Source: an uncultured Solirubrobacterales bacterium
GTDB taxonomy: Bacteria; Actinomycetota; Thermoleophilia; Solirubrobacterales; Solirubrobacteraceae
Direction of reading: 5' to 3'
DNA length: 64,000 nucleotides
Assembly (NCBI GenBank): GCA_963713985.1
Contig: OY970219.1
Span: forward strand, 2,313,700-2,377,699
Below, piece after piece: positions 51,239-64,000 of this stretch. The stretch's first letter is position 1, and the number at the start of each line of letters is the position of its first letter. The notes below the pieces were generated by a model that saw only the letters and a program-made list of their open reading frames with translations, did not search any database and was not told the DNA's origin. The translations under genes were made by a program, and so were the position numbers.

Positions 51239-51476
51239 AATCAACGAGGACCCGGAGAGGTTGTCATGTCCTCCTTGACTCACACGCCGACGGGCTCTGG
51301 CAGGAGCGCTGTGTTCTGGCGCTCAAACGCCTTGGCGAAGCCACTGCGCCAGCCGTCGGCCATCGAGGGGAAACTCCTCCAGAGCGCCAGATGGGCGCAA
51401 CTTGTCGGCGCGCAAACTGTGTGCTGATGGCGGCGCCAGCCGTTGCGATCGACTGAGAGAACCGAATCATCTTTGT

Positions 51477-51498
51477 GTAGCACGTTTTGTGCTACGCT
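51477..51498 (+). promoter_or_regulatory. TA autoregulatory operator overlapping the -10
   Basis: GTAGCAC-gtttt-GTGCTAC inverted repeat (51477-51495); TACGCT (51493-51498) lies 7 nt before ATG 51506. Confidence 0.7.
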
Positions 51499-51505
51499 AG
51501 GCCGC

Positions 51506-51751
51506 ATGAGCCGCTCCCTTCATGTGCGTTTGGACGACAGCTCGGCCGCAGCACTAAGCATCATCCGCAATGACGGTCTCAGCGATTCCGAGGCGGTGCG
51601 TACTGCGCTGCGCGAGACTGCGGCAAGGCGGCGAGCTCGCTCCGTCATTGCAGCTGAGGTTAGACGGCTTGCAGGTGATGAGGACGATCGAGCGGAGATG
51701 CGAGCGATCCGCGAGCAGATGGCGGAATTGGCGCCCGAGCCCACTGACTGA
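51506..51751 (+). CDS. Antitoxin (RHH-like) of a MazEF-type pair
   Basis: MSRSLHVRLDDSSAAALSII...SDSEAVRTAL; directly upstream of a PemK/MazF gene. Confidence 0.8.
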   Translation: MSRSLHVRLDDSSAAALSIIRNDGLSDSEAVRTALRETAARRRARSVIAAEVRRLAGDEDDRAEMRAIREQMAELAPEPTD

Positions 51752-51755
51752 GGTG

Positions 51756-52070
51756 GTGCGTGGCGAGATATTTCGCTTGCCCGCGCTACGAGGGACGCGC
51801 GGCAGGGAGCAGCGAGGCGCGCGGTACGCGGTGGTCGTTCAAGCTGACGAGTTCCTGACGCTGAGCACCGTCCTCGTTTCACCGACCTCGACGAGTGCGC
51901 AACCGGCGAGCTTTCGGCCGAGGATCACCGTGGATGGTGCTCACACGCGCATCCTTGTCGAGCAGACGACTGTCGTGGATCCCCAGCGCCTGGGGCGCTC
52001 AGCAGGCCGCCTCGATCCAGATGAGCTGAGCGCTGTGGATGAAGCGCTCGCGCTTGTCTTGGGTCTCTAG
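51756..52070 (+). CDS. mazF: PemK/MazF family toxin
   Basis: RGEIFRL...GREQRGARYAVVVQAD...VLVSPTST...ILVEQTTVVDPQRLG...VDEALALVLGL. Confidence 0.9.
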   Translation: MRGEIFRLPALRGTRGREQRGARYAVVVQADEFLTLSTVLVSPTSTSAQPASFRPRITVDGAHTRILVEQTTVVDPQRLGRSAGRLDPDELSAVDEALALVLGL

Positions 52071-59002: not shown

Positions 59003-59206
59003 CTAAGGCTCGTGCGCGTAGCGCTCGCGCATCCGCTCACGGATATCGGAGGAGTCGGCGCCCTTGCCGGCGGAGCATTTACAGTCCTCGCTGTGGCTTG
59101 GGTCGCAGCACTCGGCCTTGGCGTTGGGTTCGCAGCAGGTCGCCTGCGCCTCGGGTGCGCAACAGGCGCTCGCGGTCGTCTCAGTGGTGGTGGTCAGCTC
59201 AGCCAT
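59003..59206 (-). pseudogene. Truncated arsenite methyltransferase (ArsM)-like N-terminus with Cys-rich leader
   Basis: ACCAPEAQATCCEPNAKAECCDPSHSEDCKCS...DIRERMRERYA then stop; overlaps the arsR 3' end. Confidence 0.65.
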
Positions 59207-59547
59207 GCCGATAGCTCCTCCAGGGCGTCGGGGATCACGTAGTAGTAGGCCCACAGTCCTTGGCGCTCGGAGTTCACGATCCCGGCGTCGCGGAGCTTCT
59301 TCAGATGGTGGGAGAGCGTTGGCTGTGAGATGTCGAACAGCGGCACCAGCTCGCAGACGCAGACCCTGCCGGCGTGCTTGCGCAGCACGTCCACGAGCTG
59401 CAGGCGGATCGGGTCGCCGAGGGCCTTGGCGACCTCGGCCATCCGCAGTGCTTCCTCGCGTTGCACTTCGGGGTAGACGACGGGCTCGCAGCAAGGCGAG
59501 CCGTTGGCGCGCTTCTGCTTGGGGGATAGCTCCAAATCGACAGGCAT
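59194..59547 (-). CDS. arsR: ArsR family arsenic-responsive repressor
   Basis: PCCEP, AKALGDPIRLQL, VCVCELV, ISQPTLSHHLKKLRDAG, ERQGLWAYY. Confidence 0.92.
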   Translation of the reverse strand: MPVDLELSPKQKRANGSPCCEPVVYPEVQREEALRMAEVAKALGDPIRLQLVDVLRKHAGRVCVCELVPLFDISQPTLSHHLKKLRDAGIVNSERQGLWAYYYVIPDALEELSAWLS

Positions 59548-59602
59548 CGATCTACTTATATCAATAACACTCACGACTGTCGATGTAATACGATCGGCCG
59601 CG

Positions 59603-60325
59603 ATGAACACGCCTCCGATCGCTCGCCGTCTGCTCGCCGAGCTGTTGGGCTCTGCGTTCCTCGCCGCTGTCGTGATCGGCTCGGGCATCGCGGCGCAGAC
59701 GCTCTCCCCGAACGAGGTTGGCCTGGAGCTGTTCGAGAACGCCGCCGCGACGGCCGCAGGGCTTTACACGATCATCCTCATGTTCGGCCCTGTGTCCGGC
59801 GGGCACTTCAACCCGGTTGTTTCGCTCGCCGACGCGAGCTTTGGCGGCATCCGCTGGCGTGAGGCAATCTTCTATATCCCCGCTCAGGTAGCCGGATGCG
59901 TGCTCGGCGCCGTAGTCGCGAACGGCATGTTCTCGCTGGCCGCCATCAGCATCTCCACGCATCACCGGGCCTCGCCCGCGCACCTGTTCTCCGAGATGAT
60001 CGCCACCGCAGGGCTGCTGCTCGTGATCTTCTCGCTCGCACGCACCAAACACGCAAACACGATTCCCGCCGCGGTCGGCGCATACATCGGCGCCGCCTAC
60101 TTCTTCACCAGCTCAGCCAGCTTCGCCAACCCGGCGATCACCGCTGGGCGCACGTTCTCCAACACGTTCGCCGGGATCGCCCCCGCATCCGTGCCCGGGT
60201 ACGTGATCGCGCAGCTCCTCGGGGGCTTAGCGGCGCTCGCATTGCTGCGAGTCCTCTACCCCGACGTGACAGCGGCCGAGGCAGAAGAGATCCTCCTGCC
60301 ACACCACCAGGAGCTCACCGGCTGA
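59603..60325 (+). CDS. MIP-family arsenite channel (AqpS-like)
   Basis: AELLGSAFL, GPVSGGHFNPVVS, AYFFTSSASFANPAIT; coupled to arsC. Confidence 0.88.
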   Translation: MNTPPIARRLLAELLGSAFLAAVVIGSGIAAQTLSPNEVGLELFENAAATAAGLYTIILMFGPVSGGHFNPVVSLADASFGGIRWREAIFYIPAQVAGCVLGAVVANGMFSLAAISISTHHRASPAHLFSEMIATAGLLLVIFSLARTKHANTIPAAVGAYIGAAYFFTSSASFANPAITAGRTFSNTFAGIAPASVPGYVIAQLLGGLAALALLRVLYPDVTAAEAEEILLPHHQELTG

Positions 60326-60723
60326 TGGCGAGCGTCCTGTTCGTGTGCCTGCACAACGCCGGGCGCTCGCAGATGAGTCAAGCGCTGTTCGAGCGCGCGG
60401 CAGATGGACGCCACACCGCTCTCTCCGCCGGCACCACCCCGGCCGAGCACGTCCATCCCGAGGTCATCGAGGTAATGCGTGAGCTCGGCATCGACCTGGC
60501 CGGCCGGAGCCCACAACTGCTCACCCGCGAGCTTGCCGAGCAGGCCGACGTGGTCGTGACGATGGGCTGCGGCGATGCCTGCCCCTACATCCCCGGCGAG
60601 CGCTACATCGACTGGGACATCCCCGACCCCAAGGGCCGTCCGCTCGCCGAGGTCCGCGCTACCCGCGACGACATCGCGCGACGGGTCACAGCACTAGCGG
60701 CCGCACTCGACACAGGGTCGTAG
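60325..60723 (+). CDS. arsC: Arsenate reductase (LMW-PTP fold)
   Basis: VLFVCLHNAGRSQMS, SAGT, VTMGCGDACP, DWDIPDPKG, RDDIARRV. Confidence 0.93.
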   Translation: MASVLFVCLHNAGRSQMSQALFERAADGRHTALSAGTTPAEHVHPEVIEVMRELGIDLAGRSPQLLTRELAEQADVVVTMGCGDACPYIPGERYIDWDIPDPKGRPLAEVRATRDDIARRVTALAAALDTGS

Positions 60724-60747: not shown

Positions 60748-61095
60748 ATGAGCGGCCTTACTTGCGATCCAGCGGACGCCCATGTGTGCGCACTGGTCGT
60801 GGCCGCGCACGCCGACTACCTCTTTACGCACGACCGCGGCTACCTGCGTGACGGTCTCAGCCGCCACGGGGTACAGGTCCTCGCTCCGGATGAGTTCCTC
60901 GCCGACGTGCTGGATTCCGAGACCCGTGGGGTGCTCGAGATCCTGGGGCTGCAGGCAGACACCTGGGCCGGCGGGCGTGCGATCGGGGAGCTGCTCGACG
61001 CTCTCGAGCGCGCTGGCGCGGCGACCTTCGCGTGCAAGGCGCGCGAACTCATCGGAGCGCCGAATGGACCTAATCGGAGTTCTATCGAACCATGA
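60748..61095 (+). pseudogene. C-terminal fragment of a PIN-domain protein
   Basis: DPADAHVCALVVAAHADYLFTHDRG...VLAPDEFL; lacks the N-terminal PIN strand and runs into the downstream repeat. Confidence 0.65.
61063..61092. other. tRNA-3'-end-like putative att site, copy 1
   Basis: AATGGACCTAATCGGAGTTCTATCGAACCA; reverse complement contains GGTTCGAT-AGAAC-TCCGAT-TAGGTCC-A. Confidence 0.5.
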
Positions 61096-61403
61096 TCTAC
61101 AGGGGTCGTTGGGCCGTTTGGTCAAGACTGGCCGTCGTGCGGGCCAGCGGCGAGCCTCGACGGCAGGCTGTGGCTTGCCGGCAACGGCCTCGCCGACCAG
61201 GCTGGGTGTTGAAGGCTGTCGTCCAAGTGCTCGGCGATCGGTGCGAACCGATGCGAGCCAAGGACATCCATGCGGCCGTTGAGGCGTCGCTGGGGGCGCC
61301 GGTGGCGTGGTCTTCGGTCGAGGCTACCCTGGCTGCCAACGTCTCGGGTACCTCGCCCCGCTTCGTGCGAGTGGCGAGAGGCCGGTACGTGCTGGCGGGC
61401 TGA
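61064..61403 (+). pseudogene. Winged-helix (HARE-HTH-like) ORF, copy 1, frameshifted
   Basis: 340 nt versus 342 nt in copy 2; a 2-nt deletion near 61125 separates MDLIGVLSNHDLQGSLGRL from ...RPGWVLKAVVQVL...RFVRVARGRY. Confidence 0.8.
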
Positions 61404-61516
61404 CAGCGAGCCATTGAATCGGCCGAAGCGTCGATATGGACGTGTTTGGTTGTGGTGGGCCACTGTTGATCGCCTATGCGGGCTTGGGGTCCGGGGCTTG
61501 CCGTACCATCTTTTGC

Positions 61517-61768
61517 GTGTTGACTGTCGCTGAGGCTGCTGATCGGCTGGGTAGGAACCCCGAGACTGTCCGCCGGTGGATTCGGTCGGGGCGTCTGCCG
61601 GCGCGACGCGTCGGCGCCCGACACGCGATCGATGACCGCGACCTGCGCGTGATCGAGGACGAGCTGCACCCGATGTCAGAGCTGCCCGAGGCGTGGCGCG
61701 TCGGGGATGACGGCACCCCGGCGCTCAATTGGGTCGCCGCGCTTCATCGCTCACGCAGCGGCCATTGA
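61517..61768 (+). CDS. Excisionase-type HTH (HTH_17) antitoxin
   Basis: LTVAEAADRLGRNPETVRRWIRSGRLPARRVG; GTG lies 7 nt after TACCAT; stop overlaps the PIN start (TTGA). Confidence 0.85.
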   Translation: MLTVAEAADRLGRNPETVRRWIRSGRLPARRVGARHAIDDRDLRVIEDELHPMSELPEAWRVGDDGTPALNWVAALHRSRSGH

Positions 61769-62166
61769 CGAAGATTCTGGTTGTTGACGCGTCGGTGGCG
61801 GTCGCCGCGTGCCATACGCCTGTCGGCTTCGCCAGCCTGCGCGGGCACAAGCTCCTCGCACCGCCGCTCATGGTCACGGAGGCGAGTTCGGCGCTGCACG
61901 AGATGGCCTGGCGGAGAGAGATCACCAAGCCTCGCGCCAAGACGATGCTGGAGCGCCTTCTCAAGGCTCCGGTGGAGATCCGCACGCCCGATGGTCTGGT
62001 TCAGGCTGCGTGGAACGTCGCCGACGAACTTGGGTGGGCGAAGACCTACGACGCTCATTACGTCGCGCTCGCGCGGCTGCTGAAGTGCCGGCTGGTCACG
62101 ATCGACGAGCGACTGCTCCGAGGAGTCGCCCGGCTGAAGATCGCCGTGAGACCCCGCGAACTCTGA
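61765..62166 (+). CDS. vapC: PIN-domain toxin (VapC)
   Basis: LVVDASVAV, APPLMVTEA, TYDAHYVALA, LVTIDERL. Confidence 0.9.
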   Translation: MTKILVVDASVAVAACHTPVGFASLRGHKLLAPPLMVTEASSALHEMAWRREITKPRAKTMLERLLKAPVEIRTPDGLVQAAWNVADELGWAKTYDAHYVALARLLKCRLVTIDERLLRGVARLKIAVRPREL

Positions 62167-62195
62167 TTCTCCGAGCCCGCGGCTACGGTTATGCG

Positions 62196-63179
62196 ATGGT
62201 GGCTTCCCGATCGACCCCGCCCGCGCTCAAGGAGCAGCTTCGGGAGGAAGCGAGTGGCAAGTGTGCAAACCCCGGTTGCCCGACGCAGCGGACCCACATC
62301 CACCACATCGCTGAATGGGCCGTTTACGAAACGCATGACGGCGACGACATGGTCGCCGTCTGTCCGACTTGTCACGACGCGATTCATCACGGAAAGCTTC
62401 CGATCGACGATGAGACGATCCGTCGCTGGAAGGCGATACCGCGGAGCGGTGGGGTTCAGCGAGCCCACTTGTACGTCGAGCCTCCCGAGAGCGAGTGGCC
62501 GACGTTCCTCTTCGGTCAGATCGCGATTACTGGGGCAAGCGGCGTGACGGTGTTCGACATCGGATCCTCTGCCCACCTCGGTTTCGAACTCGCTGACGGC
62601 GAGTTGATGCTCACGGACCTAGCGGTCGCCACACGAGACGGGGAAGAGATTCTCCGAGTCGTGGCCAACCACATGCGATACCCACCCAAAGCTGGCGTCG
62701 AGTTCGAGGCACAGCCCGGGCACATCCGCGCGACGGCGCCCGTTACCGAGAGATTCCTGCCAGCGGGCGCGATCGAGCACCTGCGTGTTGGCGAGCCCGG
62801 CTTCGCGCAGGACGGGAGGTTGGTCTTGCTGGACCTTGAGGTGGTTGAGCCTGGGCGCGTGCGTGTGCAAGGGATCTGGAGCGGCCCAGGGGGTGCGGTT
62901 ATTGCCACCACCAGGGCCCTGTATTTGGTTTGTCGGACCCGAGATGATCGTCGTGGCCTTGCGGGGGGACAAGGGAGCCGAGTTGTTCCATGCCGGGCTT
63001 GCCACGACTCCACTCTTCGGGTTCGGCGGTGCGCCGGCCATGATTTGTGCCCGACCGCATGTCGAGCCAATGGACCTAATCGGAGTTCTATCGAACCACG
63101 ATCTACAGGGGTCGTTGGGCCGTCTGGCCGAGAAACTGGCCGCTGTAAGGGCCAGCGGCGGGCCTCGGCGGCAGCCTGA
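62196..63179 (+). CDS. HNH endonuclease with uncharacterised C-terminal domain; probable frameshift near 62920
   Basis: CANPGC...HIHHIAEW...DMVAVCPTCHDAIH; after ...ATTRAL the coding-like sequence continues in another frame (IWFVGPEMIVVALRG...PLFGFGG). Confidence 0.75.
   Translation: MVASRSTPPALKEQLREEASGKCANPGCPTQRTHIHHIAEWAVYETHDGDDMVAVCPTCHDAIHHGKLPIDDETIRRWKAIPRSGGVQRAHLYVEPPESEWPTFLFGQIAITGASGVTVFDIGSSAHLGFELADGELMLTDLAVATRDGEEILRVVANHMRYPPKAGVEFEAQPGHIRATAPVTERFLPAGAIEHLRVGEPGFAQDGRLVLLDLEVVEPGRVRVQGIWSGPGGAVIATTRALYLVCRTRDDRRGLAGGQGSRVVPCRACHDSTLRVRRCAGHDLCPTACRANGPNRSSIEPRSTGVVGPSGRETGRCKGQRRASAAA
63069..63098. other. tRNA-3'-end-like putative att site, copy 2
   Basis: 30 of 30 nt identical to 61063-61092. 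Confidence 0.5.
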
Positions 63180-63411
63180 GAGCCGTCGGCAGCGGTTTCG
63201 CCGGCCGGGCTGGGTGCTGAAGGCCGTCGCCCAAGTGCTCGGCAACCGGGGCGAACCGATGCGAGTCAAGGACATCCATGCCGCCGTTGAGAGGTCGCTG
63301 GGGACGCCGGTGGCGCGGTCTTCGGTCAAGGCTTGCCTGGCTGCCAACGTCTCGGGTACATTGCCCCGCTTCGTGCGACTGGCGAGAGGCCGGTACATGC
63401 TGGCGGGCTGA
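63070..63411 (+). CDS. Winged-helix (HARE-HTH-like) protein, copy 2, intact
   Basis: MDLIGVLSNHDLQGSLGRL...RPGWVLKAVAQVLGNRGEPMRVKDIHAAVE...SSVKACLA...RFVRLARGRYML. Confidence 0.75.
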   Translation: MDLIGVLSNHDLQGSLGRLAEKLAAVRASGGPRRQPESRRQRFRRPGWVLKAVAQVLGNRGEPMRVKDIHAAVERSLGTPVARSSVKACLAANVSGTLPRFVRLARGRYMLAG

Positions 63412-63604
63412 TGGTGCCACTCGGCGAAAGTTCGTTGACTGATCCCCATAGGAGTTCCGCCATGACGTCCAAAAAGCTCGCAGCTCCGAGCGCTCCCCCA
63501 GTCGGCAGCGGGGGCGCAGTGCGCCTCGGCTTCGCACTGGTAGGCCGGGTTCCGACTTCTGGTGCATTAGCCATCTTTTGTCGGCGGCCGATCGGGATGG
63601 GGCA

Positions 63605-64000
63605 ATGAGGTGCAGGAGACGACGCGCGCTGTGCCTGTTCGGGGTGCTCGCCGCCGGTACGCTGTGGCTCTGCGGCGCCGGGACGGCCGCGGCCTACGGC
63701 CCGGTCGCGTGGGGCGACGAGAATTACGGGCAGCTCGGCAACGGCGAATTCGAAGGCTTCCGCATCGCTCCCGTCGCAGTCGGCAGGCTCGACGAAGAAG
63801 TCGCCGTCAACGGCGAAGTCGCGGTGGGTGAAGAAAGCGTCGCGCTCGCGGCCGGCTTTGAGCATGCGCTGGCGCTGCTGCGCAACGGCAAGGTCGTCGC
63901 GTGGGGTGAAAACGGACAGGGGCAGCTCGGCGACGGCACCAGCCTCGGCCCCGAAACGTGCGTGTACTTCTCGGTGTGCAGCACGGTCCCGGTCGAAGTC
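63605..64000 (+). CDS. Secreted RCC1-repeat protein, 5' part; continues beyond the right edge
   Basis: Manual translation from ATG 63605: MRCRRRRALCLFGVLAAGTLWLCGAGTAAAYGPVAWGDENYGQLGNG...LAAGFEHALALLRNGKVVAWGENGQGQLGDG. Confidence 0.88.
   Translation, partial: MRCRRRRALCLFGVLAAGTLWLCGAGTAAAYGPVAWGDENYGQLGNGEFEGFRIAPVAVGRLDEEVAVNGEVAVGEESVALAAGFEHALALLRNGKVVAWGENGQGQLGDGTSLGPETCVYFSVCSTVPVEV

Follow-up and report, generated by a model that had tools for sequence, protein, structure and literature searches.

The right end of a 64-kb stretch of DNA from an uncultured Solirubrobacterales bacterium holds two small open reading frames (ORFs) that are related to winged-helix proteins and start with almost the same nucleotides, reminiscent of the 3′ end of a transfer RNA (tRNA) gene, which raises the question of what these ORFs are and how they came to stand in tandem. 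This stretch, hereafter the window, comprises bases 2313700–2377699 of a single 3.76-Mb contig with 69% G+C (OY970219.1, assembly GCA_963713985.1), and all positions refer to the window unless given as genome positions. A preliminary description of the same DNA had read the ORFs as junctions of tandemly integrated elements. With a probability of about 0.8, we regard both as attL-type left junctions of small elements that entered successively at the 3′ end of tRNA-Ala(GGC). Each ORF would then be the detached C-terminal tail of a large serine recombinase (LSR), the gene of which contains the attachment site of the element (attP) and is split upon integration.

The two ORFs form a direct repeat pair (61063–61403 and 63069–63411), the similarity of which starts one base 5′ of the ATG (AATGG) and ends at the TGA stop. 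Alignment confirmed the extent described for this pair from ATG to stop as well as its match at 54 of the first 55 nt, which is followed by 87% identity over the remaining 277 nt. At 13% divergence, about seven mismatches would be expected per 55 nt, and the Poisson probability of finding at most one is about 0.006 (hand calculation). The description of two winged-helix ORFs opening at the ATG holds for copy 2 (63070..63411, plus strand), which is intact, encodes 113 aa and matches the C-terminal part of an LSR gene, but not for copy 1 (61064..61403, plus strand), which lacks 2 nt between 61126 and 61127 (AAGACTGG vs AAGAAACTGG). Because of this deletion, the frame starting from ATG 61064 departs from the winged-helix frame and meets a stop at 61282, the winged-helix frame being open from ATG 61092 only, and copy 1 is probably a pseudogene. 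Both copies begin with an identical 28-nt putative half-site, termed P′ (ATGGACCTAATCGGAGTTCTATCGAACC; 61064..61091 in copy 1 and 63070..63097 in copy 2, both plus strand), that would mimic the reverse complement of a tRNA acceptor strand and T-arm.

The nature of the ORFs was approached by comparison with 76 related tail loci and 121 congeneric genomes. At four loci (L014, L028, L031 and L064) the tail forms the last ~113 aa of 608–694-aa proteins featuring Resolvase, Recombinase and Zn_ribbon_recom domains, as exemplified by the join of ...GVCATSGK to VDLIGVLSNHDLQGSL..., and at a fifth (L083) a recombinase ORF truncated at its 5′ end continues into the tail without a change of frame. All five recombinase-tail junctions seen are thus in frame, and seven further full-length recombinase-tail proteins were found in a collection of 5.8 billion proteins. 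N-terminal recombinase parts that are 88–92% identical to that of L014 end in ...ATS(G/E)K and then run into antisense tRNA-Lys(CTT) (L086, L088) or transfer-messenger RNA (tmRNA; L087, L090, L091), and one with 65% identity to that of L014 runs into a complete tRNA-Ala(GGC) (L094). The genome at hand also contains recombinase genes, one at genome 1305396–1307180 running into a tRNA-Ala(TGC) fragment and one at genome 1133540–1135309 running into tRNA-Lys(CTT). One enzyme gene therefore occurs with two alternative 3′ ends, a winged-helix tail or a tRNA-encoded peptide, as expected from a recombination site inside the gene. These sequence comparisons support an attP that would lie within the LSR gene and cause its splitting upon integration at a tRNA 3′ end. 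They also bear out two proposals of the preliminary description, namely that the ORF is a displaced recombinase tail, given its in-frame continuation from an LSR at the five loci, and that its start codon is made by the attachment site, as this codon lies on the putative crossover.

The shared 5′ end is constrained at the DNA level, as had been proposed from the window pair, and the constraint is even more pronounced across genomes. In 48 homologues, codons 3, 5, 6, 7, 11 and 12 stay A/T-ending (CTA, GGA, GTT, CTA, GAT, CTA), with a G+C content at third codon positions of 0.04–0.38 vs 0.78 in the remaining codons of the gene. When 31 class-1 copies are compared pairwise, their mean identity amounts to 96% for nt 4–28, 88% for nt 29–54 and 78% for nt 55–339. 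The proposed resemblance to a tRNA 3′ end fared less uniformly. In a plain local alignment of the site with the 54 tRNAs of the genome, tRNA-Ala(GGC) ranked third with a score of 21, and since reverse-strand controls reached scores of up to 22, plain similarity was dropped as evidence. We likewise rejected the site as an RNA gene, as ARAGORN (run on the window) and Rfam (on the array) reported nothing beyond the real tRNA.

What stands of the resemblance is a regular geometry. Counted from the A of the ATG, the last base of the motif TCGAACC lies at +28 in all full sites and at +23 in tRNAs. The +28 geometry extends to a second allele class and a third one (with TCCAACC) as well as to an unrelated tail family and a tail-less recombinase clade. 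The left P arms encoded by the recombinases carry GGTTCRC-type motifs at −21 to −22. Taken together, the +28 sites and −22 arms would constitute an approximately symmetric attP of 50 bp, compared with a tRNA site of 40 bp, both centred on ORF nt 3–4. For the Listeria integrase and others, the motif bound by the zinc-ribbon domain was described to lie 5 bp nearer the centre in the target site (attB), which is about 10 bp shorter than attP (PMC3783163), and the geometry observed here matches this published shift. The "few extra bases" that had been noticed in the tRNA-like site correspond to this 5-bp offset between attP and attB. An apparently intact 49-bp near-palindromic attP (GGTTCGATTAGCAACGTTATGGTGGGCTCAAGCGGAGCGTAATCGAACC) was observed at −4938 to −4881 from the tail ATG of L014, at the 3′ end of a member of a tail-less recombinase clade, with a second GGTTCGATTAGC motif directly after it.

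Whichever tRNA is linked, the 28-nt ORF start is the same apart from nt 2–4, and the 28-mer is therefore element-borne and no displaced piece of a tRNA. Nucleotides 2–4 equal the bases of the linked tRNA in every comparable pair, being TGG for Ala, Val, Met, Lys, Phe and tmRNA, TCG for Pro, and TGC for Arg-CCT and Leu-CAG. Two details of the preliminary description have to be revised accordingly: the site is not a displaced tRNA 3′ fragment, as it stays the same beside different tRNAs and shows a fixed 5-nt insertion relative to any of them, and the crossover would not be in the T-arm. From the matching bases, we infer a crossover at about nt 2–4 of the ORF, that is, at the last bases of the tRNA. 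The variants ATGGAGCTAATCGG (L033) and ATGGGCCTAACCGG (L024) are compatible with two readings, either bases that stem from the tRNA or a P′ site that has adapted.

Linkage of the tails to tRNA genes is strong and directional. The nearest right-side tRNA or tmRNA lies within 8 kb on the minus strand at 28 of 77 loci (binomial p = 8e-16), and any left-side tRNA is present at only 5 of the 77. The genes linked comprise those for Ala-GGC, Ala-TGC, Val-CAC, Met, Pro, Arg-CCT, Leu-CAG, Lys and Phe tRNAs as well as tmRNA. Two loci could be compared with empty sites in the genome at hand. Relative to its tRNA-Met locus, L024 carries a 1.44-kb insert consisting of tail, cargo and P arm exactly at the tRNA 3′ end, with conserved flanks and 11 nt common to both joints, and relative to its tRNA-Ala(TGC) locus, L007 carries a 4.2-kb insert placed likewise. 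The joint overlap is 11–14 nt in these comparisons, and long terminal direct repeats are lacking from both inserts. Tail-led elements are hence precise insertions at tRNA ends. The tRNA linkage and the two empty-site comparisons substantiate the proposed junctions of tandemly integrated elements, and the suggested check of the ORFs for linkage to tRNAs and serine recombinases returned both, the former at the 28 loci and the latter in the five in-frame fusions.

Within the 64-kb window itself, ARAGORN detected no tRNA. The minus-strand tRNA of Ala type that had been predicted to the right of position 64000 is present as tRNA-Ala(GGC) at genome 2383116–2383188 (window-equivalent 69417–69489, minus strand), 6.3 kb right of copy 2. 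The interval between copy 2 and the tRNA encodes a 1644-aa secreted protein of RCC1/trypsin type, a third tail-gene fragment of 27 codons (genome 2382227–2382307) and a minus-strand 164-aa ORF, and a 32-nt P arm, GGTTCGATTAGCGAGGTTCAGGTCTCCGAGAA, abuts the end of the tRNA. The plus-strand recombinase predicted alongside the tRNA is missing from the locus, where the P arm alone meets the tRNA, and a profile search with PF00589 and PF00239 gave no match between genome 2285634 and 2423591, which places the nearest recombinase more than about 40 kb from the array. The predicted arrangement exists in a congeneric genome at L094 with its intact recombinase running into tRNA-Ala(GGC). An empty tRNA-Ala(GGC) site for comparison with the window array was not found.

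The tail of copy 1 is nearer to that of L011 (88.6%) than to copy 2 (87%). The cargo of the copy-1 cassette, a pair of plus-strand ORFs (61436..62166) encoding an HTH_17 antitoxin-like protein (61436–61768) and a PIN toxin-like protein (61729–62166), recurs with 88.9% identity directly 5′ of the tail in L021, an array at tRNA-Ala(GGC) as well. The two copies therefore arrived separately: on this sequence evidence, they were acquired independently and not by duplication in place.

At the protein level, both window copies match the HARE-HTH domain (PF05066) with E = 1e-4 for copy 2 and 4e-4 for the other copy, and their scores of 23.0 and 21.1 bits do not reach the gathering cut-off of 25.9; a precomputed PF05066 match is present for some homologues. 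A structural model of the tail (AlphaFold, 32 homologues) predicts an N-terminal helix (9–28), a basic linker and a winged helix (47–111) with a pLDDT (predicted local distance difference test) of ~88, and its best matches in the PDB, both weak, are the Rok DNA-binding domain (E = 2.7e-3) and the RNA polymerase delta subunit (8x6g_E). At least 155 homologues share 60–83% identity over the full length of the tail ORF. Tails are found in 70 of the 121 congeneric genomes with up to 19 copies per genome, and a sample of 400 other genomes from across the phylum yielded none, a distribution that, as far as sampled, is typical of a mobile lineage. The protein is conserved along its whole length with a ratio of nonsynonymous to synonymous substitutions (dN/dS) of ~0.33, and the residues S8, N9, L12, Q13, G14, S15 and L16 of the N-terminal peptide are nearly invariant. 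Clustering all ORFs of the 76 loci revealed no conserved partner gene of the tail, and the cargo is variable, including ImmA/DUF4411-like, DUF2442-like and PIN genes as well as IS3 and IS256.

A second, unrelated tail family starts with ATGGAGCCAACCGAAGTCAATGCGAACC (MEPTEVNANRFA...) and shares the +28 geometry. It was observed at +5081 in L015, +2776 in L026 and +1630 in L045 (from the tail ATG), and in L093 it stands in frame after a recombinase of a subclade ending in ...PVVCA.(N/T)SS. The genome at hand furthermore contains a third intact tail gene of a divergent class at genome 2753471–2753818, which encodes VDLIGVLSNPVGPLKTLLEG... and has the site GTGGACCTTATAGGGGTGCTCTCCAACC; it is located 10 kb left of a plus-strand serine recombinase gene (genome 2763469–2765310), the 3′ end of which meets no recognisable tRNA.

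According to the mechanism we propose, the element lineage would be confined to this Solirubrobacterales genus, and its LSR gene would hold its own attP. In the attP state, the order along the gene would be catalytic domain, recombinase domain, zinc ribbon, coiled coil, P arm, crossover, P′ arm and 113-aa winged-helix tail. Upon recombination at a tRNA or tmRNA 3′ end, the LSR gene would be cut, leaving the N-terminal part beside the tRNA, where it would end in an antisense-tRNA-encoded peptide, and placing the tail with its 28-nt 5′ P′ half-site and a start codon on the crossover at the far end of the element. P′ would imitate the tRNA half-site B′ with TCGAACC lying 5 bp further out, a difference that would let the serine integrase tell attP from attB. 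With a crossover at the last bases of the tRNA, the tRNA half-site would survive, and the downstream arm would need little specific sequence; new elements could therefore re-enter and give rise to arrays. At the locus studied here, the N-terminal recombinase parts would have been lost, leaving the two window tails, the third tail fragment, variable cargo and the 32-nt P arm. Beyond this scheme, we infer an order of element arrival and a movement in trans of cassettes lacking a recombinase, as well as any role of the orphan tail.

The structure of the arrays adds to this proposal. Tails are often arrayed 1–4 kb apart with a P arm joined to P′, and the majority of orphan tails are located in cassette arrays devoid of an integrase. 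Most tRNA-side arms are of a "long" type of 31–35 nt that lies outside any recombinase ORF and carries GGTTCGATTAGC at −31 instead of −22. The motif is thus seen at two fixed distances from the putative crossover, about −21 and −31, and occurs in two recombinase reading frames as well as in non-coding cassette ends. Dyad symmetry is present in type I of the long arms as an inner repeat (TTAGGTC...GACCTAA) and absent from type II. The boundary between the long arm and the variable cargo is sharp, which points to non-autonomous cassettes and not to random deletion derivatives. The downstream flanks used vary widely, consistent with the tRNA arm alone being specifically read, and an occupied tRNA may in this way stay a target.

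Several observations weigh against an LSR gene split by its own attP. There are at least 20 orphan tails for each full gene. A complete N-terminal recombinase part beside the tRNA was found at none of the 28 tRNA-linked tail loci, with remnants only in L008, L037, L063, L007 and L079. Conversely, no same-strand HARE-HTH tail was found near the intact tRNA-joined N-terminal parts that were checked in congeneric genomes, and no complete two-halved element was seen. At the window array, tblastn with the recombinases returned the tails as sole matches and no N-terminal part, and no P arm is recognisable upstream of either window copy. The conservation of the ORF start reaches nt ~54, past a 25-bp half-site, and the −31 motif of the long arms is unexplained by the 50-bp attP model. 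If nt 3–4 are taken as the central dinucleotide, the Pro (CG) and Arg/Leu (GC) sites would be palindromic, which poses a difficulty with regard to polarity. How the arrays arose is likewise left unexplained because canonical serine integrases, to our knowledge, do not recombine attP with attL or attR.

Some of these points would suit tails that are independent winged-helix regulator genes of recombinase-less cassettes, with 5′ ends serving as tRNA decoys (pseudo-attB). The fusions would then result from recombinase elements that inserted beside a tail gene in the way they insert beside a tRNA, and their junctions would be attR-like and not attP. Such genes would greatly outnumber fused ones and be missing near tRNA-joined recombinase parts, as is seen here, and the mostly intact tail ORFs with their dN/dS of ~0.33 and the short non-coding P arms at the ends of tail-headed cassettes would fit them as well. 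We nevertheless hold this explanation to be unlikely, since every tail family shows the P-type spacing of +28 and not the tRNA spacing of +23, the tail site completes a symmetric 50-bp site with the recombinase-encoded −22 arms, all five fusions are in frame, and the empty-site comparisons place the tail at the left end of the insert, next to the native tRNA flank. Much less probable is an origin of the 5′ conservation in protein constraint on the N-terminal helix or in a translation-controlling mRNA structure, with a coincidental tRNA and copies generated by local duplication. The nearly invariant N-terminal peptide, the insignificant plain tRNA alignment and the conservation up to nt 54 speak for it. 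It is at odds with the rare A/T-ending codons retained at synonymous sites, the +28 geometry in unrelated tail families and in the tail-less recombinase clade, the tRNA linkage (p = 8e-16), the precise insertion at empty sites, the closer relationship of copy 1 to the tail of another genome than to copy 2 and the lack of any Rfam family match; linkage, fusions and empty sites together largely refute this explanation.

The least probable origin of the junctions is that they are classical ends of tyrosine-integrase islands, in which displaced 3′ fragments of tRNA-Ala have decayed. The genome does hold many true displaced tRNA 3′ fragments along with tyrosine integrases beside tRNAs, yet the 28-mer is constant across the linked tRNAs with its fixed 5-nt insertion vs every tRNA, is 96% conserved across genomes, unlike a decaying relic, and stands in frame after serine and not tyrosine recombinases. 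The constancy of the site from one tRNA target to the next refutes this origin. An integron cassette array was rejected too, as there is no tyrosine recombinase at the array and its junctions show serine-integrase geometry. The self-split LSR gene hence remains our preferred explanation. Tentatively, and with considerably less confidence, it may be extended to a split that is a working switch and to arrays that are a cassette-capture system. The tailed full-length enzyme would then integrate, and the loss of the tail upon integration would change or lock the direction of recombination. The orphan tail, having its own start codon and being under purifying selection, might act in trans, for instance as a directionality or immunity factor binding tRNA-like sites. 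Cassettes consisting of tail, cargo and 32-nt P arm would be moved in trans and stacked at tRNA genes, integron-like in arrangement and run by a serine integrase.

Apart from the two tails and the copy-1 cargo, the plus strand of the window contains further genes in and around the putative island. The ORF directly left of copy 1 (60748..61095), encoding only the C-terminal end of a PIN_3 domain, would represent the left flank on the B-arm side of copy 1 and has its stop inside the P′ site. An HNH-domain ORF (62196..63179), possibly further cargo or a later insertion, crosses the P′ site of copy 2 in another frame, as checked by coordinates, and an in-frame fusion of this ORF to the tail was rejected because the frames differ. 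The cargo of the copy-2 cassette would be the 1644-aa predicted secreted protein, the gene of which starts at 63578, extends through the window end (63578..64000) and continues to genome ~2382211. It features N-terminal RCC1-type repeats, repeated beta-rich modules and a trypsin-like protease domain, and its gene lies between two tail copies. Further left, a MazF-like toxin-antitoxin region (51477..52063, plus strand) matches, over 51473–52063, the sequence immediately left of the first tail in L033 and L015, where it stands 26 nt 5′ of that tail. Based on this match, the MazF-like region may be the native left flank, and the DNA from ~52.07 to 69.4 kb (window-equivalent) would be accreted island DNA. 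Inside the putative island, an arsenic-resistance cluster (59194–60723) encodes an ArsR-like regulator (minus strand), an aquaporin/GlpF-type channel and an ArsC of the low-molecular-weight-phosphatase type, directly followed by the PIN_3-end gene at 60748–61095.

Elsewhere in the genome, displaced tRNA 3′ fragments missed by ARAGORN were observed, comprising two of tRNA-Val(CAC) at genome 874206 and 877228, left of the real gene (a series including 886560), one of tRNA-Arg(CCT) (1082274/1096852) and several of tRNA-Pro (2439597/2440089/2451661). Such series are typical of stacked tyrosine-integrase islands. At genome 1305396–1314368, the serine recombinase gene running into the tRNA-Ala(TGC) 3′ fragment is directly followed by a tyrosine integrase gene, with the complete tRNA-Ala(TGC) 7 kb further, and this tRNA seems to have served integrases of two classes one after the other.

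Self-cutting integrase genes have so far been treated as a peculiarity of archaeal tyrosine recombinases, and the present findings would extend them to serine integrases of a soil actinobacterial genus. They would illustrate, with an example from nature, the 5-bp rule that lets serine integrases discriminate attP from attB. They would also point to enzymes that read a shape common to many tRNA 3′ ends, with implications for how integrases choose targets and can be engineered. Moreover, the proposed splitting would account for a family of more than 150 "hypothetical" small winged-helix genes and offer a route for toxin-antitoxin and defence-like cargo to pile up beside tRNA genes. The detachable tail, predicted to bind DNA, is a candidate for a built-in control of directionality.

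Among known systems, phage-type large serine integrases such as those of Listeria A118/LI, Bxb1, phiC31 and SPbeta (SprA) share the Resolvase, Recombinase, zinc-ribbon and coiled-coil parts with the enzymes described here. They also share an attP of ~50 bp, an attB of ~40 bp and the 5-bp motif shift (PMC3783163), and in neither case are there long terminal direct repeats. In contrast to them, attP would lie inside the integrase gene here, and integration would remove a 113-aa winged-helix domain. Instead of one specific site, the 3′ ends of many tRNA genes and of tmRNA are used, and the elements are often only 1–7 kb in size, recombinase-less and arrayed. A large catalogue of large serine recombinases makes no mention of tRNA targets (PMC10083194). 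The SSV1-type "suicidal" (type I) integrases of archaeal viruses and plasmids have attP in the ORF and upon tRNA integration leave int(N) and int(C) at the element ends (PMC7253208). In these systems, the attachment site contributes codons to the protein, the specificity for the target varies, and tandem integration is expected to yield hybrid genes; in 2020 they were stated to be "so far restricted to archaea" (PMC7253208). The likeness consists in an attP within the integrase ORF and a gene partitioned upon tRNA integration. Unlike these tyrosine recombinases of archaea, the enzymes described here are serine recombinases of a bacterium, with a predicted crossover at the extreme tRNA 3′ end, a half-site mimic instead of a long identity segment, and a C-terminal piece that is a separate folded domain with its own start codon. 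In the literature searched, we found self-splitting described for tyrosine integrases only, and no account of a serine integrase gene that its own attP divides.

A bacterial precedent is IntP of the myxophage Mx8, the int coding sequence of which contains attP; integration creates a new 3′ end of the gene and changes the properties of the enzyme (PMC6070905). Unlike the system described here, IntP belongs to the tyrosine recombinases, integration leaves no separate domain gene at the opposite end of the prophage, and cassette arrays are not formed. In the staphylococcal cassette chromosome (SCC), the serine recombinases CcrAB or CcrC insert cassettes at the 3′ end of rlmH/orfX, and tandem composite arrays include recombinase-less cassettes that are presumably moved in trans. 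In contrast to the tails, the SCC target is a protein gene, the recombinase gene stays unsplit and there is no tRNA-mimicking half-site. The likeness to integrons is limited to the arrays of small, promoter-poor cassettes.

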